A stretch of DNA of 64,000 nucleotides, taken from assembly GCA_964651245.1 (NCBI GenBank), contig CAZYVI010000010.1, forward strand, positions 93,182-157,181. Direction: 5' to 3'. The stretch comes from an uncultured Anaerolineales bacterium. GTDB taxonomy: Bacteria > Chloroflexota > Anaerolineae > Epilineales > Epilineaceae. A program made the position numbers and the translations under genes. Numbering within the stretch: position 1 is the stretch's first letter; each line of letters opens with the position of its first letter. Below, piece after piece: positions 5,774 through 49,638 of this stretch. The notes under the pieces were generated by a model. The model made no database searches, was not told where the DNA came from, and worked only from the letters and a program-made list of their open reading frames with translations.

Positions 5774-5824
5774 TCGCCTGATGGCGCGGCGGACCGTCGC
5801 GTTCGGCGGGCCGCCGGAGCGGGC

Positions 5825-7158: not shown

Positions 7159-7246
7159 GCGCCCTCCCCTCCGGCGCGACGGCGCCGCGCCCGGCGCGGA
7201 GGATGATACCTCCGGCCGCCCGTCCCCTGCCGGCTATACTGCGGCC

Positions 7247-8029: not shown

Positions 8030-8037
8030 GCCCGGCG

Positions 8038-8766: not shown

Positions 8767-8827
8767 GGTGCGGCGCGCGCGGCGGGTTCGCGCGCGCCGC
8801 GCCGATCCGATTGGCCGCCGCCCGCCG

Positions 8828-27948: not shown

Positions 27949-28737
27949 CGACCGCCGCGCACTTCGCCGCGCGGCGGTCGCCAGCGTCAGGCCGACGAAC
28001 CGCACCAGCCGCAGCTGCCGCCGCCAGCGCCACGGTTCGTTCAAGAGGCGCCACAGCCAGATCAGCCCGAGGCGGCGGACGATCAAGGGCGGCCACGGGC
28101 TGACGCCGGCGATGAAGTCGAACGTCCCGCCGACCCCGATGCCGACCGGGATGCCGAGCCCAGGCAGCGCATCGTGCAGCCAGATCTCCTGCGCCGGCGT
28201 GCCATACGCCACGAGCACGACGTCGACGGGCGCCGCGGCGGCCAGCGCGGCGCGGACGGCCGCCGCGTCCGAGGCGCGCGGGCTGCCGGCGAACGTGCCG
28301 GCGATCGTCAGCCCGGGGTGGTCGGCGGCCAGCCGGGCTGCGGCGCGATCGGCCACGCCGTCGGCCGCGCCGAGCAGGAACACCCGCCAGCCGGCCGTCG
28401 CCGCGGCGCCCGCTAGGCGCACCGTCAGCGCGCTGCCCGGGACGACGGCCCGGATCGGCGTCCCGAGCCGCCGCGCCGCCCAGCGGATCCCGACGCCGTC
28501 CGGCGTCGCCAGCGCGGCGGAGGCGAGCGCGGCGGCCAGGGCGGGGTCGTGACGGGCTTGGACGACCATCTCGGGGTTGGGGGTCGCGACGACGTGGCTG
28601 CGCCCCGACGCGCGCCCGTCGGCGATGAGCGCGGCGACGCGGTCGACGGCCTCGTCCATCGTCACGTCGTCGACGCGCGTCCCGAGGACGTCGATCGCGC
28701 CGCCCGCGCCCGCGGCCGTCCGCCGTTCAGGTATCAT
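27931..28737 (-). CDS. WecB/TagA/CpsF-family glycosyltransferase
   Basis: IDVLGTRVDDVTMDEAV, VVATPNPEMVVQA, PDGVGIRWAAR, WRVFLLGA, VGGTFDFIAG. The 3' end overlaps the MFS 3' end by 18 nt in convergent orientation. Confidence 0.75.
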   Translation of the reverse strand: MIPERRTAAGAGGAIDVLGTRVDDVTMDEAVDRVAALIADGRASGRSHVVATPNPEMVVQARHDPALAAALASAALATPDGVGIRWAARRLGTPIRAVVPGSALTVRLAGAAATAGWRVFLLGAADGVADRAAARLAADHPGLTIAGTFAGSPRASDAAAVRAALAAAAPVDVVLVAYGTPAQEIWLHDALPGLGIPVGIGVGGTFDFIAGVSPWPPLIVRRLGLIWLWRLLNEPWRWRRQLRLVRFVGLTLATAARRSARRSLGGRR

Positions 28738-28745
28738 CGCCGGCC

Positions 28746-29987
28746 ATGTCGCCCACTGCGCCTGTCCCGCCCCCCGCCGGCCGCCGCGCCCTCGCACCCG
28801 GCGGCCGACGCCAGCAGCGCGGCCGGTTCGCGCTGGCGCTCCTGGCGTACGCCGCGCTGACGGTGGTCGTGTTCGGGCTCGTCTTCCGCTACATGAAGCG
28901 GCTGGCGCGCCTGTACGGCTACGACATCGAAAACATCTGGCTGCAGTACGGCCTGGTGTGCCTGATCTTCCTGGTGTTCGTCGTCGGCGTCGACTGGGCG
29001 TTCGGCTGGCTGCCGGGACGGCCGCGGCCGCGGCTGCGGCGCGAGAACCGGCTGCGCCTGGCGCTGCTCGGCGGGCTGACGCTCGCGGCGATCGTCGCCG
29101 CCTACCAGTCGCGCTTTCCGAACGACCCCGAGATCGGCATCGACAAGGGGATCACCTACCTCATCGCCGGGGCGCTGGGCAGCTACGCCGGGGCGCTGGC
29201 CGCCACCTGGCGGACCTACGGCCTCGTCGAGGTCATCGCCCCGCCGCCGCCCGACGTCGTGCGCGCGGTGGCGGCGGCCCACGCGGGCGTGCCGCCGGCG
29301 CGGACGGCGTGGGACCGCGCCAAGCGCCTCTTCGACGCCGCGATCGCGCTCCTCATCCTGTTCGTCAGCCTGCCGATCTCGATCCCGCTGACGATGGCGC
29401 TGTGGTGGCAGGATCCCGGCCCGCTGCTCGTGGCCAAGGTGGCCGTGCGGCAGGGCGGCAAGAGCTTCCGCCAGCTCAAGCTCCGGACGATGGTCAAGAA
29501 CGCCGAGGCCGCCACCGGCCCGGTCCCCGCCGCGCCGACCGACGCCCGCGTGACGCGCCTCGGCGGGCTGTTGCGCCGGACGCACATCGACGAGCTGCCG
29601 CAGATGATCAACATCGCGCTCGGACAGATGAGCCTCGTCGGGCCGCGCCCCGAGCGGACCGTCTTCGTCGCCCGCCACCTGGTCCAGGTGCCCGGCTACG
29701 CCGAGCGCCACGCCGTGCCGCCCGGGCTCGCCGGCCTGGCCCAGGTCTACGGCGACTACTACAGCACGCCGCGCGAGAAGCTGCGCTACGACCGCCTCTA
29801 CATCCGCAAGCGCGGCCCCGCGCTCGACGTCCACCTGTTCCTGACCGCCGTCGCCCTCGCCTTCCTCGGCATCCGCCCCGGCGCCCGACACCGCCGCCGC
29901 GAGCGCCTCCGGCAGCGGGAGCAGGGCCGCCGCTACGGGCGGGCGTACGAGGCGCTGCGCGGCGAGCGGATGGACGGCCAGGGGTAG
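28746..29987 (+). CDS. undecaprenyl-phosphate sugar phosphotransferase (bacterial sugar transferase, WbaP/EpsL-like)
   Basis: N-terminal TM helices. RLFDAAIALLILFVSLPI, RQLKLRTM, DELPQMINIALGQMSLVGPRPE. TATCAT at 28732-28737 plus 8 nt precedes the ATG. Divergent from the TagA-like gene. Confidence 0.8.
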   Translation: MSPTAPVPPPAGRRALAPGGRRQQRGRFALALLAYAALTVVVFGLVFRYMKRLARLYGYDIENIWLQYGLVCLIFLVFVVGVDWAFGWLPGRPRPRLRRENRLRLALLGGLTLAAIVAAYQSRFPNDPEIGIDKGITYLIAGALGSYAGALAATWRTYGLVEVIAPPPPDVVRAVAAAHAGVPPARTAWDRAKRLFDAAIALLILFVSLPISIPLTMALWWQDPGPLLVAKVAVRQGGKSFRQLKLRTMVKNAEAATGPVPAAPTDARVTRLGGLLRRTHIDELPQMINIALGQMSLVGPRPERTVFVARHLVQVPGYAERHAVPPGLAGLAQVYGDYYSTPREKLRYDRLYIRKRGPALDVHLFLTAVALAFLGIRPGARHRRRERLRQREQGRRYGRAYEALRGERMDGQG

Positions 29988-35377: not shown

Positions 35378-38227
35378 TCAGGTAGGCGGCGCCGTGGCCA
35401 GCGCGACCGCGTCGTCGGCCGACAACGCCTCGCCCTCGGCCACGGCGGCCGCGGCGGCGTCGGCGCCGAGGGCGGCGACGACGGACGCTGTGTCGGCATC
35501 GCACTTGGGCACCTCGCGCGGCGTCAGGTGGGCGCCGATCCGATGCCGCAGACCGGCTGCGGCGCCGAACAGCCGCGCCGCCGCGATCGGGTTGCCCTCC
35601 GCCAGCGCCAGCCGGCCCAGCGGCGGCAGGACGCGCGACAACCCGCGCGGGTCGCCGGCGTCGAGGCGCAGCCGCGCCGCGGCGCCGAGCTCGGCGCGGG
35701 CGGCGGCCAGGTCGCCTTGGGCCAGCCGGATGTCGCCGCGGGTGTGGTGGATCGTGGCCAGCGTCCAGATGTCCTCGACGGCTTCGGCCAGCGGCCGCGC
35801 CTCGTCGAGCCAGGCCTCGGCGGCCGCCAGGTCGCGGGCGTCGGCGTCGATCCCCGCCAGGTTGATCAGCGTCGCCGCCATGCCCTCGCGGTCGTCGAGT
35901 TCGCGCTGGATGGCCAGGGCGGCGGCGAAGTGGTCCCGCGCTTCGGCCATGTCGCCGCGCTCGGCGGTGACGATGCCCAGACCGTGCAGCACGCCGGCCT
36001 CGGCGTAGCGGTCGCCCAGGCGCCGGGCGACGACCAGGTTGAGGCGCGCCGCATCGGCCGCGGCGTCGAGGTCGCCTTCGTCGACCGCCACGAGGCCGAG
36101 GTTGTGGACGATCCGCAGCGCCAGCGCGTCGTCGCCGCAGGCCTCGGCCAGCGCCCGGGCCTCGCCGAGGGCGGCGCGGGCGGCGGCGAAGTCGCCGCGC
36201 AGCCACGTCAGGACGCCGAGGCCGTTCATCGCCCGCGCGCGGGCGTTGGAGGCGCGGCCGGCGGCCGGGTTGGACAGGGCCCGGCGCAGGTAGGCTTGGC
36301 CTTCCTGGAGGTGGCCCCGCAGGTACCAGTAGCGCCAGAGGTCGGCGGCCATCGCCACCGCGGCGTCGGCCTGTCCGCGGGCGATGAGGTGGTCGAGGGC
36401 GGCGCGCAGGTTGGCGTGCTCGGCTGCCAGACGCTCGAGCCAGAGCGCCTGCTCGCCACCGACGACGTGCTGCCGGCCGGCATCGGCCATCGCCGCCAGC
36501 GCCGCGGCGTGCCGGTCGGCCACCGCCTCGGCCTCGCCGGCCGCGGCGAGCAGGTCGGCGGCGTACTCGATGACGACCTGGAACAGCGTGAACCGGGCGG
36601 AATCGCCCGCGGGCGCCGGCTGGACCAGGCTCATGTCGACGAGCGCCGTCAGCGACGTGAAGACGTCGAGCGGACTGGTCTCGGGGTCGACCGGGGCGGC
36701 GCAGATGGACTCGGCCAGCTCGATCGTCCAGCCGCCGCGGAAGACGGCCAGGCGGCGGAACAGCCGGCGCTCGTCGGGCCCGAGCAGGGCGTGGCTCCAG
36801 TCGAGGGTGGCGGCCAACGTCTGCTGCCGCGCCGGCAGGTCGCGCCGCGCCCCGCCGAGCTCGGCCAGCCGGCCTTCGAGGCGCGCCAGCAGCGCGGCCG
36901 GCGGCAGCATGCGCACCCGGGCCGCGGCCAGCTCGATCGCCAGCGGCACGCCGTCGAGACGGCGACAGATCGCCTCGACGGCCGCCGCGTTGTCGGCGGT
37001 GAGCGCGAAGTCGGCGTCGGTGGCGCGGGCGCGATCGACGAACAGCATCACGGCCGGGCTGGCGGCGACGGCGGCCACGGCATCGGCGTCGAGCCCGCGG
37101 GCGCTGCCGGCGGCGGCGTCGGGCAGGCGGTCGAGGTCGTCGAGGTCGTCGTCCGCTGCCGGCAGCGCCAGCGGGCCGAGGGCCACCTCGTGCTCGCCGC
37201 GCACCCGCAGCGGGGCGCGGCTGGTGACGATCAGCCGCAGCGACGGGCAGGCTTCGAGCAACGCGGCGAGGTCGGGGCCGACCGCCACGATCTGCTCGAG
37301 GTTGTCGAGCACCAGCAGCGTGCGGCGCTCGGCCAGGCGCGCCGTGAGCACCTCGGCCAGCGGCGTGCTGCCGCCCTCGGCGACGCCGAGCGCGGCCGCC
37401 AGGGCCGGCAGGACGAGGGCTGGATCGTCGATCGCGGCCAGCGGCACGAAGAAGGCGCCGTCGGGGAAGTCGTCGAGGGCCTCGGCGGCCAGCTGCAGCG
37501 CCAGCCGCGACTTGCCGATGCCGCCCGGTCCGGTCAGCGTCACAAGCCGGGCGTCGGGGCGGTCGAGGAGGGCGTGGACCTCGGCGACCTCGGCGGCGCG
37601 GTCGATGAGCGGCGTCAGCGCCTGCGGCAGGTTGTGGGGGTGGGCGTCGAGCGTCTTCAGCGCCGGGAACGCCGCCGGCAGGTCATCCACGACCGCTTGG
37701 TGGACCTCCTCCGGCGCCAGCAGGTCGCGCAGCCGGTGCGCGCCGAGCGACTGCAGCGCCACGCCCGAGGGCAGGTGGTCGCGCACCAGCAGCGCCACCG
37801 CCTGGCTGAGCAGGATCTGGCCGCCGTAGCCGGCCGCCATGAGCCGCGCCAGACGGTTGAGGCACGGCGCCACGTAGTCGCCGCGATGCGGTGCGGCCTC
37901 GCCGGCGTGGACCGCCATCCGCACCGCCAGCGGCCCGTCGGGCCCCCAGTCCGCCGTCGCCAGGGCGCGCTGGGCGTCGACGGCCGCGGCGAGGGCGTCG
38001 GGGGCGGTGTGGAACGCGGCCTGGACGGCGTCGCCGACGCGCTTGAACCAGACGCCGCCGTGCGCGGCGATCGCGCGCTCGACGATCGCGTCGTGCCGGG
38101 CCAGGGCGGCGCGCATGGCCGCGGCGTCGCGCTCCCAGCGGGCCGTGCTGCCCTGGATGTCGGTGAACAGGAAGGCGACGGTGCCGGTGGGCCAGGCGGG
38201 GGCGGCGTCGCCGGGCCGGGCGGTCAG
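35378..38227 (-). CDS. class III adenylate/guanylate cyclase domain fused to an NB-ARC (STAND) NTPase and a long TPR array; no HTH; start codon uncertain
   Basis: Cyclase motifs [44 protein letters not shown] motifs [39 protein letters not shown]. More than ten TPR-like repeats follow. No in-frame ATG or GTG lies upstream of the cyclase domain; only a CTG at 38225-38227, which overlaps the upstream gene's stop. Confidence 0.75.
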
Positions 38228-38790
38228 CGGACGAGCTCCGCCGCCAGCCCGACCGCCAGCAGTCCCAGGCCGAGCAGGACGAACAGCGACGCCTGGTTGA
38301 AGGCACGCAGCTTGGCGTTCGTGATCACGGCGTTGGCGACGATCTGGCCGGCCAGCGCGACGTGCAGCGGGTGGTCGGCCGGCGCGTAGCCCGTGGCGCC
38401 GCCGTAGCGGGCGGCGACCTCGGCGGCGAGCTCGTCGGGCGTGTAGGCCGCCAGGTGGCCGCTGTAGAACAGGTTGTCGTGCGGCTCGCCGCGGCGGGGG
38501 CGCGACGGCCGCAGCCGCGGCGGGCCGTGCGGCCGGAACGACCACACCGCGGTGGCCAGCGCCGCCAGGAACGCCAGCTCGGCGGCGCCGAACGCGGCCA
38601 CCGCCGGCGCCGGCATGTTGTCGGCGCCGCGCAGCAGGCTGATCATCGCCGCGTTCGCCGTGCCCGTCAGGGCGGAGACGGCCAGGTTCTTGGCCTCGGC
38701 GAACCGCAGCCAGGCGTCGACGCGGTCGAGGATGTCGGCCAGGAGGTCGCCGGTCGGGCCGGCGTCGGCGGCCGGCGCGCGGGCGGTCAT
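38224..38790 (-). CDS. hypothetical membrane protein (188 aa; hydrophobic segments plus a C-terminal TM anchor)
   Basis: MTARAPAADAGPTGDLLADILDRVDAWLRFAEAKN..., hydrophobic stretches, then the C-terminal SLFVLLGLGLLAVGLAAELV. Its ATG overlaps the upstream stop as ATGA at 38787-38790, and its stop overlaps the cyclase CTG. Confidence 0.5.
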   Translation of the reverse strand: MTARAPAADAGPTGDLLADILDRVDAWLRFAEAKNLAVSALTGTANAAMISLLRGADNMPAPAVAAFGAAELAFLAALATAVWSFRPHGPPRLRPSRPRRGEPHDNLFYSGHLAAYTPDELAAEVAARYGGATGYAPADHPLHVALAGQIVANAVITNAKLRAFNQASLFVLLGLGLLAVGLAAELVR

Positions 38791-39218
38791 GCCGCCGGCC
38801 AGAACCGCGTGACGAGCTCGTCGACGATCGGGACGAGCAGCACCGTCGTGGCCAGGATGGCCGGCGTCACCCCTTCGTCGAGGCCGAACAGGTCGCCGCC
38901 GGCCGAGGTGACGCTGACGGCCCAGCCGACGTAGGCCACGCCCGCCAACGCGTAGAAGTACCACGGCCCGCGGGTCTGCTGCTCGCGCAGCCGCGTCGCC
39001 AGCAGGTAGAGGACGGTGCCGACGAGGCCGATGCCGAAGACCGCCCAGCGCCAGGCGGCGGCGCTGTCCGGCAGGTTGGCGTACGTCGGCACGTAGAACG
39101 CCAGCACCTCGGCCGGGACGTACTTCGTCAGCTTGCTCGGCAGCGTGTCGGCCTCGCCGCCGGCGTCGGCGGCGCGCACGCGCTGGCTGTCGGGGGCGTA
39201 GACGATGGCGCGGGGCAT
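38787..39218 (-). CDS. hypothetical small membrane protein (143 aa, 3 TM helices)
   Basis: MPRAIVYAPDSQ... then WRWAVFGIGLVGTVLYLL, PWYFYALAGVAYVGWAV, VTPAILATTVLLVPIV. Strong RBS: GAGGAGG 5 nt upstream of the ATG at 39216-39218. Confidence 0.55.
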   Translation of the reverse strand: MPRAIVYAPDSQRVRAADAGGEADTLPSKLTKYVPAEVLAFYVPTYANLPDSAAAWRWAVFGIGLVGTVLYLLATRLREQQTRGPWYFYALAGVAYVGWAVSVTSAGGDLFGLDEGVTPAILATTVLLVPIVDELVTRFWPAA

Positions 39219-39353
39219 CGGGTCCTCCTCGGGGCGAACGGAGAAGCGCGGGCCAGTGTAGGCCGGCGGGGGGCGGGTCGCAAGGGCGGCGACGGGGGTG
39301 GTATCATCGACCGGCTCGACCGACACCGTCCCCACCAACGAGGAGCCCCTGCC

Positions 39354-41267
39354 ATGCCCACGACCCCGTGGCGCCGCTGGGCGCCGCACGCGCCGCTGGC
39401 GGCGATCGTGGCGCTCTACCTGGCGACGGCCGCCGCCTACGCCTGGCGGGTGCCGATCCTCGAGGGCGCCGACGAGCACGGGCACGCGCTGGTGGTCCAG
39501 CACGTCAGCATCCACGGCAGCCCGCCGCGCATCGGCACGCTCTGGGAGGCCGTCCAGCCGCCGCTCTACTACGCCGTCGCCGCAGCGGTCCACGGCGCGG
39601 CCGGCGGCGGCCGGATCGTGCCGTCCACGCTCCGGCTCAACGACGGCTTCCGGTTCGACGACCCCAGCTCGGCCGACGCGTTCGATCCGCGCAGCTATGC
39701 GCCGGCCGACGCCCGCCCGGCGCGCCGCCTGCGCGCCCTGTCGATGCTCTTCGGCGCGCTGACGCTCGGCTGCGTGTACGCGACGGCCCTGGCGGTCTCG
39801 CGCGGGCGACGGTTGGTGGCATGGTCGGCCGCCGCGCTCCCGGCGCTCACGCCGATGTACGCCCACCACCACGCCGTGATCACGAACGACAGCCTGGCAA
39901 CGCTGTGGTGCGCCGTGGTCGTCTGGCTGCTGGCGCGGCACGTCATGGCGGGCGCGGCGGCGCCGGGAGCCGGCGGCGGAGTCGGGGGCAGCGGGGGCAC
40001 CGCGCGGCAGGCGGTGGGAATGGGCATCGCCGCCGGCCTCGGCATCTGGACCAAGCTCACGATGGCCCCGGTGGCCGCCGCCGCCGCCGTCCTGCTGGTG
40101 TGGGGGCCGGGGCCGGCCGCGGCGCGCCGGCGCGCCGCCGTCCGATTCGCGCTGACGGCAGGGGCCGTGGCCAGCCCGTGGCTGATCCTGAACACCTGGC
40201 ACTACGGTGATCCGCTCGCCCGCGCCGCGATGCAGCAGGCGCACGCCGCGCTGGCGGTGCAGCGCACGCCGTTCGCGTTGATCGGCGACGGCGGGTTCTG
40301 GCGGATGGTCTTCGAGTCCTACTGGGGTCGGCTGGGGTCGATGACGGTGCCGCTGCGCGCCGAGGACTACGCCCTGTTCCGCCTCGTAGCGGCCGTCGGC
40401 GCGCTTGGCCTGCCCGTCGCCATGGGGCGCCGCGTCATCGACCGGCGGGCCGCCGGCGCGCTGGGGCTCGTGGTCGGCCTGACCTGGGTCGCCTTCGTGG
40501 CCCACAACCTGGGGTTGTCGGCGCCGCAAGGCCGGCTGCTGTTCCCGGCGCTGCCGGCGCTGTCGGTGCTGTGGGCGGCCGGCTGGACCGCCGGGCTCGA
40601 TGGGGCGGTCGACGCCGCCCGCCATGCCGCGCGGCGCGCCGGTGTGGCCGTCGGGCCGCGCCGGCGCTGGGCGGGCGCGATCGGCGCGGCGGCATCCGCC
40701 GGGCTCGTCGCGGCGCTCGGGCTGGTCAACCTCCAGACGCTGGCCGGCCCCGTGCAGCGCGCCTTCCACGACGCGCCGGCGGCGCGCGCGGCGCAGCTCG
40801 CCGCGCCCGCGCCGCGCCGGCCGGCCGCCGCCTCCGCCCCCGCCGCGCCCGACGACGGCGCCCGGCCCGTCGCGTCGCGCGCGATCCGTGCCGCGGCGCG
40901 ACCCGACCGGCCGCCGCCCGCGCCGCCTTCGACGCTGGCCCGTGCCGATCGGCCCGCTGCGGCCGGCACGCTCCGCACGGCGCCCGGCGCCGCCGAGGAC
41001 GCCAGCGTGGCCGTTGCCGCGCCCGCTGCCGCGGAGTCGCGCGATCGGCGCCCGCGGCGGCCCGCGGCCAAGCCCCGGCCGCCGTTCGAGCCCGACGCGG
41101 ACGACGCGGCGGCCGACGACCGGGCCGCGCTCGAGCGGCGACGCCACGTCCCGAACGGGGGCGAGCTGCCGCCGATCGACGCCGCGCCGTGGGCGGCGCC
41201 GACGCCGCAGGCGGGCGGCGCGCAGCAGCCGATGCCCGTGCCGCCGGTGTCGCCGCCCTCGGCCTGA
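39354..41267 (+). CDS. glycosyltransferase family 39 / PMT_2-like (ArnT/PMT-type GT-C) membrane protein with a Pro/Ala-rich C-terminal tail
   Basis: N-terminal loop EGADEHGH and QPPLYYAV as in PMT/ArnT-like enzymes, with 10 or more TM helices. AGGAG lies 8 nt upstream of the ATG. Convergent with the YfhO-like gene, stops 3 nt apart. Confidence 0.55.
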   Translation: MPTTPWRRWAPHAPLAAIVALYLATAAAYAWRVPILEGADEHGHALVVQHVSIHGSPPRIGTLWEAVQPPLYYAVAAAVHGAAGGGRIVPSTLRLNDGFRFDDPSSADAFDPRSYAPADARPARRLRALSMLFGALTLGCVYATALAVSRGRRLVAWSAAALPALTPMYAHHHAVITNDSLATLWCAVVVWLLARHVMAGAAAPGAGGGVGGSGGTARQAVGMGIAAGLGIWTKLTMAPVAAAAAVLLVWGPGPAAARRRAAVRFALTAGAVASPWLILNTWHYGDPLARAAMQQAHAALAVQRTPFALIGDGGFWRMVFESYWGRLGSMTVPLRAEDYALFRLVAAVGALGLPVAMGRRVIDRRAAGALGLVVGLTWVAFVAHNLGLSAPQGRLLFPALPALSVLWAAGWTAGLDGAVDAARHAARRAGVAVGPRRRWAGAIGAAASAGLVAALGLVNLQTLAGPVQRAFHDAPAARAAQLAAPAPRRPAAASAPAAPDDGARPVASRAIRAAARPDRPPPAPPSTLARADRPAAAGTLRTAPGAAEDASVAVAAPAAAESRDRRPRRPAAKPRPPFEPDADDAAADDRAALERRRHVPNGGELPPIDAAPWAAPTPQAGGAQQPMPVPPVSPPSA

Positions 41268-41270
41268 CGA

Positions 41271-43814
41271 TCAGCCGCGCGCCGCGCGCTCCGGCCGCGC
41301 CGGGGACGGGCGCGCCGCCCCGCCGCCTACGGCCAGCCACCCGCCCACCGCCCACCACGCCGCGATCGCCAGCGCCGCGGCAGCCGCCAGCGCCCGGCCC
41401 AGCCGCCAGCCGGCGGGCTCGTAGCGCAGGACGATGCGGTGCCGCCCGGCCGGCGCCGGCACGGCGCGGAACGTGAAGTCGGCGCGCAGCACCGGGGCCG
41501 GCGCGTCGTCGACGGTCGCGCGCCAGTCGGGGTGCCAGGTGTCGGACAGCAGCACGAACGCCGGCGCGCCGAGGTCGACGTCGACGACGATGTGGTCGGG
41601 CTCGTAGGCGGCGACCGACGCGGCGCCCTGAACGGCTGGGCCGGCGCTGTCCGGCGCCGGGTCGACGGCGCGCACGGCGTCGGCGGCCGCCGGTTCGCGC
41701 GCGAGGTCGGCGGCGGCGAAGTGCACCACGGCCGCGGGGGCGGCCGGGTCGCGCAGCGCGTCGAACACCGCGGCGTCGTCGGCCCGTACGGCGGCGTCGG
41801 CGACGAGCCGGAGCCGCGGCAGGGCGCCGTCGTTGCGCCAGACGTCGACGGCCGGGTCGGCGTCGTAGGCGAGGGTCCAGCGGCCGCGGTCGCTGGGGGC
41901 GGCGCCCTTGTCGGTGACGCACCAGCCGACGCCGAAGCGGTTGTAGAGCGGCGAGCCGCGGTGCTCCAGCCCGTCCATGCTGAAGCTGTAGGTGCCCAGC
42001 CGCGACGGGTTGTAGACGCCGCCGAGGCCGTAGAGCCCCCAGAGCTGCGGCGCCGCCGGCGGCCAGGCGCCGGCCGCCACGTCGATGCGCGCCGGCAGGT
42101 CGGGCGCGCCGGGGGCGAACGACGCGCCGCGCTCGGCCAGCCACCGCACCGCCGGCGACGGCCGGAACCCGGCGGCCGGGTCGGCGCCGTCGACCTCGAC
42201 GCCGGCGCCGAGGGCGACGAGGTCGACCGCGGTGGCCAGCGCCAGCAGCGGGGCGGCGGCGCGTGCCAGCGGAATCGCCCATGGGCGGGGAGCGCGCACG
42301 GCGGTCGTCGGACCCGCCGTGGCCGGCATCGCCGTCGCGGCTGCGGTCATGGTCGCCATCGATGTCGATCTCGACGTTGATGGCGATGGCGACGTCGATG
42401 TCGACGTCGATGGCGGTGACGATGGCGATGGCGGTGACGATGTCGCGGCGGCGGTCGCCGCACGCCCGCTCCAGCGGGCCGCGGCCGACGCCGCCACGGC
42501 CTGCGCCCCCGCCGCCGCCAGCCACGCCAGCGCCAGGTCGGTCACCAGGAGGTAGCGCGCCGGCGCCCGGAACGGCAGGTCGAGCGGGGCGATGAGCCAG
42601 CTGTGGACCGGCGTCGCCGGCCCGAGCGCGATCAGCAGCGACACGGCGGCCAGCGAGGCGAAGACGGCGACGTCGGCGCCGTCGGTCGAGCCGAACGCGT
42701 AGTCGCCCCGGCGGCCGCGGCCCACCGTGAGGTCGCCGCCGGCACGTCGCCGCCGCCGGCTGGGCCACGCGGCCGCGACGGCGAACAAGGCCAGGCCCAG
42801 CGGCGCGAGGCCGACATAGCCGACCTCGACCCGGTCCCAGTCGCCGCGGAAGTCCGCCGCCCCCCGCCCGTACCACCACGGCGCCACAAGGCCGACGAGC
42901 GCCCGCGGCGGCAGGCTGTACTGCACCGCCGTGGCGTCGTCGTAGGCGGCGCGCACGGTGTGGGGCCGCAGCGCGACCGTCGGCAGCAGCGCCGGCGCCG
43001 CCAGCGCGAACGCCAGCGCGCCGGCGACGGCGACGTGAACGAGCGGCCCGGCGCGGCGGCCGAGCGCGGCCCGCCCGGCGGCGACCCAGCCGACGGCCGC
43101 CGCGCCGAGCCACGTGGCCTGGGCGTGGCCCGCCAGGGCGCCCATCGCCAGCGCCACCGCCGCCAGCGCCACCCAGGCGCCGCGCCGGACGAGCGCGGGC
43201 GCGCGGGGTGCGAGGCGGCGGTCCGATCCGCCGCCGACGGTGTCGGCGCGGCAGAGGCCGAGCAGCGCCAGCGGCAGCCAGCTGGCGGCGGCGTTGAAGT
43301 TGAGGTTGCCGAGGTGGGTGACGAAGACGTCGTTGAACATCCAGGCCAGCGCGCCCAGCAGCGCCGGGGCGGGCGCGAAGCCGCCGCCGTCGCCGCCGCG
43401 GCGCCACAGCCGCAGGCAGGCGTACATCGCCGCCCCGGCCAGCCAGGCGTGGCCGATGACGACCCACTGCAGGTGGCGGTAGTCGAAGGCGGGCGCGAGC
43501 GCGTAGAGCAGCCGCAAGGGCGGGTAGAGCAGGCCCGACTGGTTGTCGGCCAGCAGCGGCGCGCCGGCGTAGAGGTGCGGGTTCCACAGCGGCAGCTCGC
43601 CGGCGGCCAACCGTTCGGCGGCGAAGCGGTACATCGGGTAGAGGAACGACGCCAGGTCGCCGCCGCCGCGCGGCAGCCAGTAGCCGCCGAACAGGACGGG
43701 GGCGAAGAAGGCGGCGCAGGCGGCGGTGAGGGCGGCGAGGGCGGCGACGTCGCCGGCCGGCCACCGTTTCGGAGTCGGCGCCGAGGTCGGCGGCGGTGTC
43801 GCCGGCGCGCTCAT
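41271..43814 (-). CDS. YfhO-like polytopic membrane protein with a large extracytoplasmic C-terminal domain and an internal Ser/Thr/Pro-rich linker
   Basis: N-terminal multi-TM domain (LWNPHLYAGAPLLADNQSGLLYP...). STP-rich linker TSSPPSPSSPPSTSTSTSPSPSTS. The ATG overlaps the upstream gene's stop as ATGA (43811-43814). The longer listed ORF (to 46202) is a frame artefact. Confidence 0.5.
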   Translation of the reverse strand: MSAPATPPPTSAPTPKRWPAGDVAALAALTAACAAFFAPVLFGGYWLPRGGGDLASFLYPMYRFAAERLAAGELPLWNPHLYAGAPLLADNQSGLLYPPLRLLYALAPAFDYRHLQWVVIGHAWLAGAAMYACLRLWRRGGDGGGFAPAPALLGALAWMFNDVFVTHLGNLNFNAAASWLPLALLGLCRADTVGGGSDRRLAPRAPALVRRGAWVALAAVALAMGALAGHAQATWLGAAAVGWVAAGRAALGRRAGPLVHVAVAGALAFALAAPALLPTVALRPHTVRAAYDDATAVQYSLPPRALVGLVAPWWYGRGAADFRGDWDRVEVGYVGLAPLGLALFAVAAAWPSRRRRRAGGDLTVGRGRRGDYAFGSTDGADVAVFASLAAVSLLIALGPATPVHSWLIAPLDLPFRAPARYLLVTDLALAWLAAAGAQAVAASAAARWSGRAATAAATSSPPSPSSPPSTSTSTSPSPSTSRSTSMATMTAAATAMPATAGPTTAVRAPRPWAIPLARAAAPLLALATAVDLVALGAGVEVDGADPAAGFRPSPAVRWLAERGASFAPGAPDLPARIDVAAGAWPPAAPQLWGLYGLGGVYNPSRLGTYSFSMDGLEHRGSPLYNRFGVGWCVTDKGAAPSDRGRWTLAYDADPAVDVWRNDGALPRLRLVADAAVRADDAAVFDALRDPAAPAAVVHFAAADLAREPAAADAVRAVDPAPDSAGPAVQGAASVAAYEPDHIVVDVDLGAPAFVLLSDTWHPDWRATVDDAPAPVLRADFTFRAVPAPAGRHRIVLRYEPAGWRLGRALAAAAALAIAAWWAVGGWLAVGGGAARPSPARPERAARG
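42361..42444. repeat. tandem hexanucleotide repeat (14 x GAYGKC) inside the YfhO-like CDS; it encodes the Ser/Thr/Pro linker
   Basis: gatgtc gatctc gacgtt gatggc gatggc gacgtc gatgtc gacgtc gatggc ggtgac gatggc gatggc ggtgac gatgtc. Confidence 0.6.
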
Positions 43815-46366
43815 CGCACCGTCACCGTGCCGACCGTCACCGCGTCGTCGCTCCAGCGCGCACCCGCGGCGTCCACGGCCGGCAGGCGCGGGGTGCCGTC
43901 GGTCGGGCGGTAGAGGCCGAGGCGCACCGTCAGCCGGTCGCCCGGCCGGACCGGCGACGGCCACGCCCAGGCCACGCGCGACGGGATGCGGTCGCCCGGC
44001 CGCCAGCGCGACGTCGGGTAGCGGTGGTCGCGCGAGGGCGGGCCGTCGAGCGCGAGCGGCTCGGCCTCGCCGTCGCGCGTCACGTGCACGAACAGCTGCA
44101 GGTCCTCGCCCGGCGCCTGGAGCGCCCGCCAGACGAGGTCGAGCGTGCCGCTCGCCGCCGGGGCGTTCATGTCGAGCGCCAGCGGCAGCGCCGGCCGCTG
44201 CGGCACGCCCGCGGCGTCGAACGCCCGCACGTCGAGCGCGATGGCGTCGCCGAAGCGGGCCGACGGCGGCCCGGCCGCGGCCATGCGCGCCTCGTCGCGG
44301 CGTGGCTGCGGCGCCGCCGCGTCGATCGCGACGTCGACCGCCGCGCTGTCCGGCCCGCCCGGTGCGGCCGGCGCGGACGGCCAGCTTTCCTGGGCGTTCA
44401 TGTCGTAGATGTCGACGACCAGCCGGGCGAGCGTCGACGGGCGGTAGCCGTCCCAGTCGGGCCGGGTCGCCAGGGCCGGCGCCCGGATCGTCCGGACGTC
44501 TTCGACGAGCAGGCCCGCACTGCGGTCGAGCGTGGCGAACGGGGCGTTGCCGCGGCCGGGGTAGCTCAGGTCGGGCGGGCTGGCGACGGTGCGCAGCGCC
44601 GTCGGGTCGTCGGCCGCGGCCACCGCCTGGTCCCAGCGCAGCGCGACGTAGCCGTCGCGCAGCGGGCCGTCGAATTCGGACGTCGGGTGGTCGAGGATGC
44701 GCCAGTAGAGGGTGACGTCGACGTTGCGCCCCTCGACGACGCGGGCCGGCGCCCGGATCGCCGCGAGCTCGACCCGGGCGTGGGTGCCGTCGAACGCGAC
44801 CCCGACCGGCACGGCGTCCGGTGGCAGCGTGCGCTCGACGATGAACCGCGGCCGGGCGTAGGCCGGCCGGATCGCGCCGAGGAGCGCGCCTGCGGACAGG
44901 CCGGCCATCGCGACCGCGACGATGGCCGCGAGCGCGCCATCGCCAAGCCGCCGCGGCGGCAGCAGCGCGCGCCAGCCCAGGACGAGGAGGACGGCCGGGG
45001 CGGCGACGGCCGGGAAGAGCAGCCGGCCGTGGGCGCCCTTGGCGATGAGCATCCAGCGCAGCAGGGCGGCGAAGGCGACGAGCCACCACACGACGAGCAG
45101 CGCGATGTCGGGCCTCGGCCACGACGGCCGCCGCCATGCGCGCCGCCCCCACGCCCGCACGCCGCCGGCCAGCGCGGCAAGGGCGGCGGCGTCGACGAGC
45201 GCGTAGACCCAGCGCGGCAGCAGGATCGTGAACCAGCCGAAGACGCCCCAGCTCGAGAGCCAGAGGCCGTAGAGCTCGGCCGGCAGGCCGCGCACGAACC
45301 GCGCGGCGCTGACGTCGCGCTGCAGCTCGGGCGGCAGCATGAGGTTCAGGCCGGTGAGCGAGCCGTAGAGCCGCAGGTTGCGCAGGTACCACCAGCCGGC
45401 CAGCACGACGCAGGCGGCGACGACGGCGGCCGCGGTGGCGACGAGGCGGCGAGCATCGGCGGCGGCGCCCGCACCGCGCCGCCGCCACGCTGCCCACAGG
45501 AGCGCCCCGACGACGAACGCGGCCAGCGCCAGCCCGGAGAGCTTGGCCAACGGGGCCAGGCCGACGGAGACGGCGAGGGCGGCGGCGTCGCGGCGGCGGG
45601 CGCGGGCGCGCCCGCTCGCGGCGCCGATGCTCGGGCCATCGCCACCGCCATCGCCATCGCCACCGCCGCCGACGTCGTCGTCGCGCGCGCCCACGACCCG
45701 CAGCAGCAGCGCCAGCGACACCGCGGCGACGGCGTTCATCGCGTTGTCGTTGGACACCGTCGACGAGAGGTGGATGAACTGCGGGTTGAGGCCGACGAGC
45801 GCCAGGGCGGCGACGGCGAGCCAGCGGCGGGGGGCGAGGACGCGGGCGAAGATCGACCATAGGGCGACGAGGGTGGCGAGGGCGAGGAGGGTCGAGGCGA
45901 GGCGCATCGCGCGGACGGCGGCGAGGTAGCGGTCGTCGCGGCGGGACGCGCTGGCGACGAACCGGTTCTCGTTGCCGCGCACCTCGGGTCGCCCCATCGA
46001 GTTCTGGTGGTTGTACGTCAGCGCGTCCCAGCCGGGTTCGCAGTGCCCGCGGAAGGTCTCGCCGGCGGGATCGAAGCCGTTGCCGTCGAGCCGGACGAGC
46101 GGGCTCACCAGGGCGTAGTACAGCGGCGGCTGGCTGCCCTCTTGCTCCCACAGCCCCCGGTCCTCGGCGCGCGCCTGCTGCACCGGCAGCGTGCCGGTGC
46201 AATAGAGGTGCTTGGCGAAGAAGTAGTGCGAGCTCTCGTCGGCGCCCTCGAACGGCGGCACGACGGCGTTGTAGGCGAGGGCCAGCGCGGCGAAGGCGGC
46301 GATGATCGCGCCAGCGGCGGCCCTCGCTGCGCGTTGGGTCGAGGGCGCTGGCCGCGTGACGGTCAT
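43811..46366 (-). CDS. glycosyltransferase family 39 / PMT_2-like membrane protein (second copy) with a C-terminal extracytoplasmic domain
   Basis: PFEGADESSHYFFAKH and QPPLYYALV motifs, multiple TM helices, and an acidic Gly/Asp low-complexity insert DDDVGGGGDGDGGGDG. Start taken at the in-frame Met-15 of ORF 43811..46408. Its stop overlaps the YfhO-like start. Confidence 0.55.
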   Translation of the reverse strand: MTVTRPAPSTQRAARAAAGAIIAAFAALALAYNAVVPPFEGADESSHYFFAKHLYCTGTLPVQQARAEDRGLWEQEGSQPPLYYALVSPLVRLDGNGFDPAGETFRGHCEPGWDALTYNHQNSMGRPEVRGNENRFVASASRRDDRYLAAVRAMRLASTLLALATLVALWSIFARVLAPRRWLAVAALALVGLNPQFIHLSSTVSNDNAMNAVAAVSLALLLRVVGARDDDVGGGGDGDGGGDGPSIGAASGRARARRRDAAALAVSVGLAPLAKLSGLALAAFVVGALLWAAWRRRGAGAAADARRLVATAAAVVAACVVLAGWWYLRNLRLYGSLTGLNLMLPPELQRDVSAARFVRGLPAELYGLWLSSWGVFGWFTILLPRWVYALVDAAALAALAGGVRAWGRRAWRRPSWPRPDIALLVVWWLVAFAALLRWMLIAKGAHGRLLFPAVAAPAVLLVLGWRALLPPRRLGDGALAAIVAVAMAGLSAGALLGAIRPAYARPRFIVERTLPPDAVPVGVAFDGTHARVELAAIRAPARVVEGRNVDVTLYWRILDHPTSEFDGPLRDGYVALRWDQAVAAADDPTALRTVASPPDLSYPGRGNAPFATLDRSAGLLVEDVRTIRAPALATRPDWDGYRPSTLARLVVDIYDMNAQESWPSAPAAPGGPDSAAVDVAIDAAAPQPRRDEARMAAAGPPSARFGDAIALDVRAFDAAGVPQRPALPLALDMNAPAASGTLDLVWRALQAPGEDLQLFVHVTRDGEAEPLALDGPPSRDHRYPTSRWRPGDRIPSRVAWAWPSPVRPGDRLTVRLGLYRPTDGTPRLPAVDAAGARWSDDAVTVGTVTVR

Positions 46367-46809
46367 GCGCCCTGCGCCGGCGGCAGCTGGCGGGGGAAGA
46401 TCCAGCACGAGGGGTGGGCTTCCATGCCGATGTGCGGGTAGTACGTCCGCGCCCCGGGCGCGGCCAGCAGGATGAGGTTCGCCGTCGGCGGGACGGCGGC
46501 GCGGGTGCGGGCGATGAGGGTGCGGCCGATACCGCGGCCCTGGAAAGCGACGTCGACGCCGAGGTCGGAGAGGTAGGTGCAGTAGACGAAGTCGGTGAGG
46601 CTGCGGGCGACGCCGACGAGCAGGCGATCGGCGGTTCGGGCCGTGACGATGAGGTCGGCCTTGGACAGCATGCCGGCGATGATCGCGGGGGCGTGGATCG
46701 GGCGGCGCGAGGCGAGGGTCGAGCGGACGAGGAGATCGACGAACTCAGCTGGCGTCAGGTCGGGCTCGAGCGCGTAACGGATGTCGGCGGCGTCGCGGTC
46801 CATGGGCAT
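46363..46809 (-). CDS. GNAT-family N-acetyltransferase
   Basis: C-terminal 148 codons of ORF 46363..49038: VAFQGRGIGRTLI acetyl-CoA-binding motif. GGAGGG upstream of the ATG. The stop abuts or overlaps the GT39 start. Confidence 0.6.
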   Translation of the reverse strand: MPMDRDAADIRYALEPDLTPAEFVDLLVRSTLASRRPIHAPAIIAGMLSKADLIVTARTADRLLVGVARSLTDFVYCTYLSDLGVDVAFQGRGIGRTLIARTRAAVPPTANLILLAAPGARTYYPHIGMEAHPSCWIFPRQLPPAQGA

Positions 46810-46826
46810 CCCTCCGACCCTCCGCC

Positions 46827-48893
46827 TTAGATCGGCAGCTGGGTCCCGAGCTCGACGACCTGCGCCGGCGGCAGGCCGTAGTAGTACGTCGCGCTCTGGG
46901 CGTTGCGCGACAGCCAGGCGAAGAGGTGCTCGCGCCAGACCGCCATGCCCGGGCGGCGGGTGGCGATGATGCGCTCGCGGCTCAGGAAGTACGTCACCGA
47001 CCGTGGGTCGAGCGACCAGCCGGGCGCTTCGACCGCCGCCAGGCCGCGCGGCACGTCGGGCTGCTCCATGAAGCCCGACCGGATCGTGACCCGCCAGACG
47101 TCGTCGCGCAGGCGCTCGACGGCGGTGCGCGCGCCGACCGGCAGGTAGGGCACGTCGGCGGTGTCCACATGGACGACGACGATCTGGCGATGCAGGACCT
47201 GGTTGTGCCGCAGGTTCTGGATGAGCGCCGGCGGCGTGCCGCGGGCGTTGGAGTAGAGGAACACCGCGGTGCCCGGTACCCGGGCGACGGCCTTGGCGTC
47301 GGCCTCGGCAAGGAACGTCCGCAGCGGCTGGGTGCTGGCGGCCAGCCGGATCGCCAGCAGCTTGCGGCCGGTGTGCCAGGTCGTCAGGATCGCGAACACG
47401 CCGCCGGCCACCACCAGCGGGAACCAGCCGCCGTGGAACAGCTTGAGGAGGTTGGCGCCGAAGAAGGCCAGGTCGATGACCAGGAACACCGCGCACAGCG
47501 CCAGCGCCCGGCCCTGAGACCAGCCCCAGCGCTCGCGCAGCACGGCGTAGAACAGGGCCGTCGTGATCGCCATCGTGCTCGTGACGGCGATGCCGTAGGC
47601 GGCGGCCAGGTTGCTCGACGTCCGGAAGCCGAGGACGACGGCGATGCACATGGCCAGTAGCGCCCAGTTGATGGCGCCGATGTAGATCTGCCCGCGCGCC
47701 TCGGCCGAGGTGTGGCGGATGTCGAGCCGCGGGCTGTAGCCCAGCTGGATGGCCTGCATCGTCAGCGAGTAGGCGCCGGAGATGAGGGCCTGCGACGCGA
47801 TCACCGTGGCGCAGGTTGCCAGCATCACCAGCGGCGCCAGCGCCCAGCCGGGCGCCAGCTGGTAGAACGGGTGCGCCGCCGCCGCCGCCGGATCGACGAG
47901 CAGCAGCGCGCCCTGGCCGAAGTAGTTCAGCAGCAGGCACGGCAGCACCAGCGCGAACCAGGCCAGCCGGATCGGACGCGCCCCGAAGTGCCCCATGTCG
48001 GCGTACAGCGCTTCGCCGCCGGTCACCACCAGGAAGACCGAGCCCAGGATCACGAAGCCGTGGAAGCCGTTGGCGGCGAAGAACCGCGCGCCGTGCAGCG
48101 GGTTGACGGCCGCCAGGACGGCCGGCGCGTCGGCGATGGCGGCGACGCCGAGCAGGGCCAGGACGGCGAACCAGAGCAGCATGATCGGTCCGAACACCGC
48201 CCCGACGCTGGCCGTGCCGCGGTGCTGGAACGCGAACAGGCCGATCAGGATGCCGACGGTCAACGCCAGCAGCAGGTTGTGGTCGACGGACGGCGCCAGG
48301 ACCGCCAGCCCCTCGACCGCCGACAGCACGCTGATGGCCGGGGTGATGACGCCGTCGCCGTAGAGCAGCGCCGCGCCGAACAGCCCCAGCAGGATGAGCC
48401 GCCCCCGCCAGCGGTGGGCCTTGTCGTGGCGCGGGCTGATCAGGGCGATGAGGGCCAGGATGCCGCCCTCGCCCTGGTTGTCGGCCCGCAGGATGAAGCC
48501 GACGTACTTGATCGAGATGACAATGACGAGCGACCAGACGATGAGCGACAGCACGCCGAGCACGTTGGCCGCTGTGGCCGCCACGCCGTGGGCCGGGTTG
48601 AAGCACTCCCGCAGCGCGTAGAGCGGGCTGGTGCCGATATCGCCGAAGACGATGCCCAGCGCCGCCAGCGCCAGCGGCCAAACCGGGCCGTGGTGCGGGC
48701 GGTGGCCGGCGGCCGTGGGCGTCGCGCCGCCAGCGTCGGCCGCCTGGTCGTCGGCCGCCGGCGCGGCGTCGTTCGACGCGTCCGACGGCGCCGCCGTCCC
48801 GGCGGACGGCGCCGTCACGTCGTCCGGCGCGGGCGGGGCGGCGGGGGCATCGGGCGGGGCAGCGGGCTGGGCAGCGGGCGGGGCGGCGGCCAT
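46827..48893 (-). CDS. kup: KUP/HAK/KT potassium uptake transporter with an Ala/Pro-rich N-terminal extension
   Basis: GIVFGDIGTSPLYAL, ADNQGEGGILAL, 12 TM helices, and a C-terminal cytoplasmic domain. GGAG lies 8 nt upstream of the ATG. Confidence 0.85.
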   Translation of the reverse strand: MAAAPPAAQPAAPPDAPAAPPAPDDVTAPSAGTAAPSDASNDAAPAADDQAADAGGATPTAAGHRPHHGPVWPLALAALGIVFGDIGTSPLYALRECFNPAHGVAATAANVLGVLSLIVWSLVIVISIKYVGFILRADNQGEGGILALIALISPRHDKAHRWRGRLILLGLFGAALLYGDGVITPAISVLSAVEGLAVLAPSVDHNLLLALTVGILIGLFAFQHRGTASVGAVFGPIMLLWFAVLALLGVAAIADAPAVLAAVNPLHGARFFAANGFHGFVILGSVFLVVTGGEALYADMGHFGARPIRLAWFALVLPCLLLNYFGQGALLLVDPAAAAAHPFYQLAPGWALAPLVMLATCATVIASQALISGAYSLTMQAIQLGYSPRLDIRHTSAEARGQIYIGAINWALLAMCIAVVLGFRTSSNLAAAYGIAVTSTMAITTALFYAVLRERWGWSQGRALALCAVFLVIDLAFFGANLLKLFHGGWFPLVVAGGVFAILTTWHTGRKLLAIRLAASTQPLRTFLAEADAKAVARVPGTAVFLYSNARGTPPALIQNLRHNQVLHRQIVVVHVDTADVPYLPVGARTAVERLRDDVWRVTIRSGFMEQPDVPRGLAAVEAPGWSLDPRSVTYFLSRERIIATRRPGMAVWREHLFAWLSRNAQSATYYYGLPPAQVVELGTQLPI

Positions 48894-49031
48894 CGGGTGC
48901 GCTCCGGGACAGGTCGGGCGGCATCGTCGGCGCTCGGGCGCCGGCGGCACGATGGTAGCCAGGCGGCCCGGGAACGCAATCCCCGACGCCGATGCGATGG
49001 GCCGGAAGGACACCGGATGTGCATGGCAGGC

Positions 49032-49060
49032 TTGACATGGTGACAAGTATGGCTTACACT
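49032..49060 (+). promoter_or_regulatory. sigma70-type promoter TTGACA-N17-TACACT for the XRE/2-TM gene pair, carrying a TGACA-N3-TGACA direct repeat
   Basis: -35 TTGACA at 49032-49037, a 17-nt spacer, and -10 TACACT at 49055-49060. AGGAGG at 49072-49077 lies 7 nt before the ATG at 49085. Confidence 0.5.
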
Positions 49061-49084
49061 TCGCCCAGTACAGGAGGCACGCCG

Positions 49085-49321
49085 ATGGCCGCTCGCCGCC
49101 TCACGAATCGCCTTCGCGTCGCCCGCGCCGAGCACGGCTGGTCGCAGGATGAGCTCGCCCGTCGGGCGGGCGTGACCCGCCAGACCGTCAGCTCGATCGA
49201 GACCGGCCAGTACGTGCCCTCGGCCCTGCTGGCGTTCGTGCTGGCCGAGCAGCTCGGCGTGCCGGTCGATGCGCTGTTCCGTCTCGAGCCGGCGTCGCCG
49301 GCCGAGCCGCCCAGGGAGTGA
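49085..49321 (+). CDS. XRE-family (Cro/C1-type) HTH transcriptional regulator, 78 aa
   Basis: LRVARAEHGWSQDELARRAGVTRQTVSSIETGQYVPSALLAFVLAEQLGVPVDALF. Confidence 0.75.
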   Translation: MAARRLTNRLRVARAEHGWSQDELARRAGVTRQTVSSIETGQYVPSALLAFVLAEQLGVPVDALFRLEPASPAEPPRE

Positions 49322-49326
49322 CGCTC

Positions 49327-49638
49327 ATGGCTCCGTCCACACCGTCCACACCGACCGAGATCGACCGCGACGAGCGCACGATCGCCGTCGAGCGGGCCGG
49401 GAACCGTTGGGCCTACCTTGTGCTCAGCTACGGCCTGCTGGCCAGCGTGGCCTACCGCAGCTTCGCCCGCCACGAGCAGCCGTGGGATCTGCTGGCACTC
49501 GTCGTGGCGGGCGGCGTCGTCAGCGCCGGCTACCAGGCCGCGCACCGCGCCCTGAGCCAGCGCTGGGCGGTCGTCGTCGTGACGACACTGGTCGTCGCCG
49601 CCGCGCTGGCCGCCGTGGCCGCCGGCGTGATGCGCTAG
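49327..49638 (+). CDS. small 2-TM membrane protein co-transcribed with the XRE regulator
   Basis: GGGAG lies 8 nt upstream of the ATG at 49327; an alternative GTG at 49318 overlaps the upstream stop. Two hydrophobic helices (WAYLVLSYGLLASVAY, VVVVTTLVVAAALAAVAAGV). Confidence 0.5.
   Translation: MAPSTPSTPTEIDRDERTIAVERAGNRWAYLVLSYGLLASVAYRSFARHEQPWDLLALVVAGGVVSAGYQAAHRALSQRWAVVVVTTLVVAAALAAVAAGVMR

Follow-up and report, generated by a model that had tools for sequence, protein, structure and literature searches.

What do the membrane glycosyltransferases encoded at one locus of an uncultured Anaerolineales bacterium attach sugars to? The question is raised by a 64-kb stretch of DNA (positions 93,182 to 157,181 of contig CAZYVI010000010.1; this whole stretch is called the window below), in which three adjacent genes, here called M, N and O, encode large membrane proteins, and a fourth, W, encodes a paralogue of O. 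A preliminary description had called M, O and W PMT/GT39-like and N YfhO-like, and had proposed a role in envelope or protein O-glycosylation. Its core, a cluster of GT-C membrane glycosyltransferases with one YfhO-like member and translational coupling, holds. For the function, we consider it likely (a probability of about 0.6) that the proteins are GT-C enzymes using polyprenyl-phosphate sugars to glycosylate an envelope glycopolymer, with donor and acceptor as we infer them.

Gene organization

The window, part of an Ardenticatenales-like Chloroflexota genome, has a G+C content of about 76%, so spurious frames crowd mechanical lists of its open reading frames (ORFs). The gene calls were checked by a frame analysis based on G+C content at third codon positions (GC3). 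This backs exactly the four named genes, all of them where they had been placed, with a GC3 of 0.95–0.96 in the called frames. M (39354–41267, plus strand, GC3 0.95) encodes a 637-amino-acid predicted GT-C membrane glycosyltransferase that forms a short branch of the superfamily of O and W. N (41271–43814, minus strand, GC3 0.96) encodes an 847-amino-acid YfhO-family membrane protein, and O (43811–46366, minus strand) an 851-amino-acid predicted GT-C glycosyltransferase. W (58949–61336, minus strand), the third paralogue, is confirmed as a 795-amino-acid protein with the architecture of O. When every ORF of the window was scanned with a hidden Markov model (HMM), no GT-C genes came up beyond those named.

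Translational coupling is evident from the junctions, which were read directly from the sequence. The stop codon of O and the start codon of N overlap as ATGA at 43811–43814 (minus strand), as had been described. A second ATGA, absent from that description, joins the stop of a GNAT acetyltransferase gene to the start of O at 46363–46366 (minus strand). The GNAT gene (46363–46809, minus strand) encodes 148 amino acids and matches Pfam Acetyltransf_10 with an E-value of 4.7e-7. GNAT, O and N are thus a coupled translation unit, held together by two ATGA overlaps. Since the Kup gene ends 17 nucleotides (nt) upstream of the GNAT gene, Kup, GNAT, O and N may form one transcription unit, and they are probably co-transcribed. 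M is convergent with N, and their stop codons are 3 nt apart (41265–41273); a Shine-Dalgarno-like GAGGAG lies 8 nt ahead of the ATG of M. The gap between M and N leaves no space for terminators, and the 3' ends of their homologues truly overlap in two related loci (L001 and L004). A promoter and terminator scan of 38000–49600 gave a single promoter-like site (plus strand, 49032–49060) and zero terminators, and is uninformative at 76% G+C.

One superfamily and a separate YfhO-family partner

Over the membrane domain, O and W are identical at 33% of their amino acids (E 4e-25). W scores 668 bits against the O-family HMM, and its C-terminal modules match the last module of O. Between M and O, BLASTP finds 29% identity over about 200 residues, and comparison of the two families with hhalign gives a probability of 100% and an E-value of 2e-51 over 396 columns, which is the whole membrane domain. 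The preliminary description had named recent assembly duplication as a finding that would overturn it. At 29–33% protein identity the paralogues are old, and a recent duplication or assembly artefact is ruled out.

The superfamily is marked by the motifs PxxExxDExxH directly after the first transmembrane (TM) helix, QEGSQPPLYYA, SNDN, a Lys after TM5, WWYLRN and GRLLFP. The first of these appears in O as EGADESSH (46226–46249, minus strand), which opens the first extracytoplasmic loop and was read from an alignment of 53 sequences, and in M as EGADEHGH (39462–39485, plus strand), which also lies in the first extracytoplasmic loop, is invariant in the M family and carries the proposed catalytic acidic residues. 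The QPPLYYA of O (46112–46132, minus strand) lies within the family signature QEGSQPPLYYA. All four proteins had been said to share EGADE..H and QPPLYYA. The EGADExxH form is indeed found in M and O, but W has a variant, EAPDGIWH (61160–61183, minus strand; EAPDGxxH), in its place, and N has neither motif. Across the 53 sequences, P37, E40, D43, H47, Q79, P81, N206, D207, K275, R329, N330 and R448 (O numbering) are invariant. E40, D43 and H47 of this set lie in the loop motif, and E44 is at least 90% conserved. The acidic D-E pair of loop 1 is thus D43-E44 in O and D40-E41 in M, while W has D-G.

A homologue search with O returned 127 matches, and all named ones are from Chloroflexota (Ardenticatenales, Anaerolineae, Thermoflexales). 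Close homologues of M were only 13 in a word-indexed search; its family profile matches 6076 representative proteins, of which 3026 reach E<=1e-10, and forms of about 450 as well as about 750 amino acids are among them. As judged from these comparisons, O, W and M are members of one large superfamily that is essentially Chloroflexota-specific. Such proteins are already given labels of the GT39, ArnT or YfhO family by annotation pipelines, and the records of O homologues carry the names GT39, ArnT family and phospholipid carrier-dependent glycosyltransferase. We found no paper on a GT39 or GT-C expansion in Chloroflexota in the literature.

N belongs elsewhere. It has more than 384 matches, and the YfhO domain (PF09586) is present in almost every one of the 120 best; its family shares the conserved motifs PxGGGDxxS and WNP. 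N itself reaches a YfhO score of 28.8, just above the gathering cut-off of 28.5, and does so over its last 48 residues only. The link between the N and O families is weak by hhalign (probability 12%), and the N-family profile found nothing meaningful among PDB sequences. By its matches, N is a YfhO-family protein and a putative GT-C, of another family than O, M and W and remotely related to them.

Within N, a TCGATG hexanucleotide repeat of 14.5 copies was found with Tandem Repeats Finder at 42359–42445. The repeat and its flanks (42300–42473) encode an in-frame Ser/Thr/Pro-rich insert at about residues 448–505 (SSPPSPSSPPSTSTSTSPSPSTSRSTS...), which is missing from the closest homologues. GC3 dips at about 42250–42550, over the insert. 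A frameshift or assembly error, which such a dip could signal, was ruled out: tblastn with five homologues keeps one frame, with the insert in-frame. In more distant homologues, as judged by eye, the corresponding segments are hydrophobic and look transmembrane. The insert could be a linker prone to expansion and contraction, or a glycosylation target itself.

Family label and fold

Is GT39 then the right label for O, W and M? The Pfam gathering cut-offs are 26.1 for PMT_2 (PF13231) and 22.7 for PMT (PF02366). M scores 26.6 for PMT_2, just above the cut-off, and 21.4 for PMT, below it. O has no match to PMT_2 and falls below the PMT cut-off at 19.2, and W falls below the PMT_2 cut-off at 23.2 and has no match to PMT. 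NCBIfam gave no match for any of the four proteins, and PDB sequence searches with O, N and M as single proteins gave nothing relevant. Profiles reach further. When the 53 O-family members were compared with Pfam at E<=1e-3, 40 touched PMT_2, 23 touched DUF2142 and 23 touched PMT (best 1.5e-11). The O-family profile had a sole match among PDB sequences, yeast Pmt1, at an E-value of 0.012. PMT_4TMC was found in none of the 53 members and, by Pfam, in none of M, O and W, and Pfam scans of the window proteins and the O family revealed no MIR domains. The region after TM7 leads into beta-sandwich modules in place of the PMT_4TMC domain.

The fold is clearer than the family. O was modelled with AlphaFold from 53 aligned sequences at a pLDDT of 87.5, and the structural scores of the model against solved folds are 21.4 for Pmt4, 21.1 for ALG12, 20.1 for ArnT, 18.4 for both Pmt2 and AglB, 18.1 for PIG-M and 17.7 for AftB. 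Foldseek places ArnT first and Pmt4 third. O has 11 predicted TM helices, with Arg-rich loops on alternating sides, the N-terminus inside and the C-terminus outside. Judged from the model, the GT-C fold of O is beyond reasonable doubt. O, W and M are about equidistant from PMT (GT39) and ArnT (GT83), so that the GT39 label is too specific. Membership of GT39 is not established: the PMT gathering score is not reached, and the PMT_4TMC domain is not found. The earlier wording "PMT/GT39-like" was therefore over-specific.

These results bear on the proposal that O, W and M are bacterial PMTs of GT39 that, like actinobacterial Pmt, move a hexose (mannose or other) from polyprenyl phosphate to Ser/Thr of secreted or envelope proteins. 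PMTs have 11 TM helices, and so, by prediction, does O; its loop-1 D-E pair is positioned as the DE motif of PMTs, yet this pair is common to other GT-C families and does not discriminate for PMT. The profile match to Pmt1 and the 23 family members that touch Pfam PMT also speak for the proposal, as do the disordered segments within N (Ser/Thr/Pro-rich) and M (Ala/Pro-rich) themselves. Set against these are the PMT scores, below threshold in all window proteins, and the complete lack of PMT_4TMC in the family. Characterized bacterial GT-Cs with a PMT_2 domain (GtlB, GacL, CsdD/F, GtsC), together with YfhO, use C55-P-sugars to glycosylate lipoteichoic acid, wall teichoic acid, rhamnan or secondary cell-wall polysaccharide (PMC8035078). 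Because such enzymes act on cell-wall polymers, the "mannosyltransferase" label of Pfam does not imply protein glycosylation. The arrays described below, too, are more readily explained by glycopolymer assembly than by one enzyme that modifies proteins. We regard protein O-glycosylation as unlikely, though as the foremost of the alternatives to be kept in mind.

Large extracytoplasmic C-terminal domains had been attributed to all of these proteins. This is borne out for O, in which the membrane domain of 11 helices (44858–46366, minus strand) is followed in the structure model by two extracytoplasmic beta-sandwich modules (43814–44854, minus strand), and for W, which by homology has the same two-module tail. 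It does not apply to M. The membrane domain of M covers about residues 1–465, and what follows (40749–41264, plus strand) is a disordered low-complexity tail of 172 residues, with 30% Ala, 20% Pro and 13% Arg. By homology with the topology of O, this tail would be outside the membrane. It is seen only in Ardenticatenales-like relatives, and homologues of 450–470 amino acids stop just after the last helix.

Arrays across Chloroflexota loci

Three paralogues within 25 kb had been thought unusual, which is false for this lineage. A scan of one genome per species for QEGSQPPLY gave at least 599 encoding stretches; 79 loci were retained, all of them from Chloroflexota. The neighbourhood counts that follow come from crude ORF calls on contigs of metagenome-assembled genomes (MAGs), at loci that are non-independent since they were picked by similarity to O. 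By HMM analysis, 40 of the 47 loci of at least 15 kb have two or more GT-C ORFs within about 10 kb, and 22 of the 47 have three or more, with a maximum of seven. On these counts, three paralogues in 25 kb are typical, and tandem arrays of the O/M/W family are the norm in Anaerolineae-type Chloroflexota. The usual company of the family is polysaccharide biosynthesis genes. The array neighbours that recur most are Wzy_C/O-antigen-ligase-like genes (15 loci), GT2 (10), GT4 (8) and NAD-dependent sugar epimerase/dehydratase genes (6). Five loci also have, near the arrays, a GT2 that, as seen by eye, is extended at its C-terminus by a hydrophobic stretch. Arrays of up to six or seven paralogues with YfhO, Wzy-like, GT2 and GT4 genes are the context that, as noted above, speaks against a single enzyme of protein modification.

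The pairing of O with a YfhO-like gene is a part of this pattern. Of the 47 loci of at least 15 kb, 21 have a YfhO-like gene within 10 kb, and a directly adjacent, co-directional O-family/YfhO pair occurs in 17 of the 79 loci. In L001 the O–N pair has the identical 4-nt overlap at 67% identity, with M convergent, and the M-N-O arrangement is kept in both L001 and L004. The pair is also kept in L003/L005 and L006, whose proteins are merely 41–42% identical to O. Since the conservation of the pairing reaches far past close relatives, a shared pathway for O and N is most likely. In six Caldilineaceae loci (L044, L047, L051, L071, L080 and L083), a YfhO-profile ORF of about 1500 codons from stop to stop (~5100–9760) lies about 200 nt upstream of an O-family gene, and may encode a fused or greatly extended YfhO-like protein.

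The same conservation bears on whether there is a functional cluster at all. The four genes might be independent members of a massively expanded family, near one another by chance or by descent through tandem duplication and acting on unrelated substrates. W is 12.6 kb from O, alone among unrelated genes, M is on the opposite strand, and the surrounding genes are housekeeping ones; the family is also very large, with at least 599 genomic matches and the 6076 representative proteins of the M profile. What makes mere proximity a poor explanation is the ATGA overlap of O and N, the persistence of their adjacency at 41% identity and its recurrence in 17 loci, and the M-N-O arrangement kept in two relatives. 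We consider it very improbable.

Surrounding genes

The surroundings of the cluster are of a housekeeping or regulatory kind, with genes for Kup, MetH, SulP, RimK, STAND/TPR regulators, GNAT and an alpha/beta-hydrolase. W lies alone, 12.6 kb from O, flanked by genes for a SulP transporter and an SMC-like ATPase. The preliminary description had drawn a WecG/TagA-like and a priming sugar-transferase (Bac_transf) gene at 27931–29987 into the same apparatus. The genes are real, and the link is unsupported. The pair is about 9 kb off, and between it and the cluster are genes for a thioesterase, a LuxR-STAND regulator, RimK, a STAND-TPR protein and a 2TM effector. Beyond the window, Bac_transf is found only in the close relative L004, which is syntenic throughout, and WecG matched no locus among the relatives. 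No polyprenyl-phosphate GT2 or flippase gene was found in the window, and protein O-glycosylation is without specific support.

The GNAT gene is upstream of O in L004 and absent in L001 and in the 79 more distant loci, so its linkage with O is lineage-specific. A conserved linkage of GNAT, Kup, WecG and Bac_transf with the GT-C genes was considered and rejected: GNAT, Kup and Bac_transf turn up again only in L001, L002 and L004, which are close relatives, and none of them in the 79 distant loci.

The GNAT gene is of interest for an ArnT-type function, in which the enzymes would place a sugar or amino-sugar on the head group of a membrane lipid or lipoglycan and so alter surface charge, with GNAT perhaps supplying or modifying the amino-sugar. 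Its translational coupling to O would fit, and source pipelines name some homologues ArnT family or 4-amino-4-deoxy-L-arabinose transferase-like. The window scans, however, found no ArnA/B/C/D-like or other donor-synthesis genes nearby, and the GNAT linkage is limited to the window and one close relative, L004. The tandem beta-sandwich ectodomain of O is large, unlike that of ArnT, which has a small periplasmic domain. Chloroflexota are also without a lipopolysaccharide (LPS) biosynthesis pathway according to literature cited in PMC13319060. An ArnT-type role is, on balance, a doubtful prospect, and clearly less probable than protein O-glycosylation.

At 38224–38790 (minus strand), a 188-amino-acid protein matches 2TM/PycTM-type anti-phage effectors (PADLOC PDLC00668, E 2.7e-25; Pfam PycTM, 3.2e-7). 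Its gene is directly downstream of one for a 912-amino-acid STAND NTPase with TPR repeats (35378–38116, minus strand), with no cyclase gene near. L004 has a similar pairing, in which a gene annotated PycTM stands beside an AAA_16/AAA_22 ATPase gene, and in L001 the region matching the 2TM effector falls within the ORF of a large AAA_22/TPR protein. The NTPase and the effector may be a defence or signalling module adjoining the GT-C cluster. A hypothetical protein at 38787–39338 (minus strand) has no Pfam or PADLOC match, and its TTG start at 39338 is 15 nt from the divergent M. Its homologues in L001 and L004 have 145 amino acids and spacers of about 150 nt, so the true start probably lies further into the gene.

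At 6322–7158 (minus strand) lies a type II DNA methyltransferase gene (PADLOC MTase_II, E 6e-136; Pfam N6_N4_Mtase). A scan of its neighbours gave no endonuclease family match, and one neighbour is without a Pfam match. Divergent from W, a gene for a large AAA_23/SMC-like ATPase (61418–64000, plus strand) runs past the window end; it has weak matches to the defence-system ATPases LmuB, mad3, DndD and GajA.

Proposed function

The envelope glycopolymer is the likeliest acceptor because of the arrays, the YfhO pairing and the Wzy, GT2 and GT4 neighbours. This would be a secondary cell-wall or surface-layer polysaccharide, an assignment that we hold with slightly better than even confidence. By analogy with characterized GT-Cs, each enzyme would take a polyprenyl-phosphate-linked sugar, with synthesis and flipping left to the products of genes elsewhere. 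The Asp/Glu pair of loop 1, invariant at its Asp (D43/E44 in O), would act as the catalytic base, as the fold and characterized GT-Cs suggest. Conserved Lys and Arg residues at the outer membrane face, for which K275, R329 and R448 are candidates, would hold the lipid phosphate, and transfer of the sugar to its acceptor would take place at the outer face of the cytoplasmic membrane. The 11-helix topology puts the C-terminal pair of beta-sandwich modules of O and W outside, where they probably hold or select the acceptor.

Some results weigh against a glycopolymer role. The O/M/W superfamily appears to have no characterized member. A GT2 polyprenyl-phosphate sugar synthase, a GtrA/Wzx flippase and nucleotide-sugar genes are all missing from the scanned genes of the 64-kb window, and the local context (Kup, MetH, SulP, RimK) is a housekeeping one. 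The neighbourhood counts, for their part, share the crude calls and the non-independence described above. The donor synthase and the flippase could be encoded elsewhere in the genome.

A bolder extension, which we offer as speculation, takes the arrays of up to six or seven genes interleaved with YfhO-like and Wzy-like genes to be a Chloroflexota-specific extracytoplasmic assembly line for the outer envelope layers, as in mycobacterial arabinan and mannan synthesis. Each GT-C would add one linkage with a polyprenyl-phosphate sugar as donor, the tandem beta-sandwich ectodomains would read the length or type of the acceptor, and O and N would form a physical heterocomplex. According to PMC13319060, Chloroflexota are without the pathways for LPS and the beta-barrel assembly machinery (BAM), and their outer envelope layers have been proposed to be polysaccharide or protein. 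A lineage-specific GT-C superfamily with outward beta-sandwich domains is a plausible source of these outer layers. As far as the window itself goes, the main outcome is a correction: its genes are ordinary for the lineage, and a GT39 or protein-glycosylation label calls for caution. It is the wider pattern that deserves note, namely a large, phylum-specific GT-C superfamily with tandem beta-sandwich ectodomains, arrayed with YfhO and Wzy-like genes in bacteria that have a layered envelope.

Comparison with known systems

ArnT and the PMTs are among the structural relatives of O. The solved ArnT (GT83) of Cupriavidus metallidurans (PDB 5EZM/5F15) has only 15–18% identity to the window protein, with no sequence-level match in the PDB searches. 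O differs from it in having 11 predicted helices and a tandem beta-sandwich ectodomain of 350 residues, and there is no arn operon here. Identity to the yeast PMTs (GT39; Pmt4, 9E61, and Pmt1/Pmt2, 6P25/6P2R) is 12–13%. Besides the sub-threshold Pfam PMT scores and the lack of PMT_4TMC and MIR, the family differs from the PMTs in its tandem arrays, which keep company with YfhO and polysaccharide genes.

For N, the relevant comparison is with YfhO of Bacillus subtilis (BSU08610), Listeria monocytogenes (Lmo1079) and Staphylococcus aureus. Like them, N is a large multi-pass PF09586 protein that has an ectodomain and ends in a membrane anchor. It differs in its marginal, C-terminal score, in having no adjacent csbB or gtcA gene, in its pairing with O and in its Ser/Thr/Pro insert. 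PDB sequence searches with the N protein and the N-family profile found no solved structure for the YfhO family. The mycobacterial GT-C arrays (EmbC/A/B, AftA-D) have lower structural scores than PMT and ArnT and no detected sequence relationship; the analogy is one of genome organization only.

The closest functional analogy is with the multi-component GT-C systems of Firmicutes (GtlB, GttB, GacL, CsdD/CsdF, GtsC, YkcB), which share with the O family the PMT_2 domain (PF13231) that 40 of its 53 members touch. These enzymes glycosylate cell-wall polymers outside the cell from C55-P-sugars, and some of the larger ones have extracellular carbohydrate-binding domains (PMC8035078). The Firmicute GT-C usually has a GT2 partner beside it, whereas this window has no GT2 or GtrA-type gene, and the motif set and tandem beta-sandwich ectodomain seen here were met only in Chloroflexota sequences. 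By these analogies, the role proposed for O, N, M and W most likely resembles that of the Firmicute transmembrane glycosylation systems and the mycobacterial GT-C arrays rather than protein O-mannosylation.

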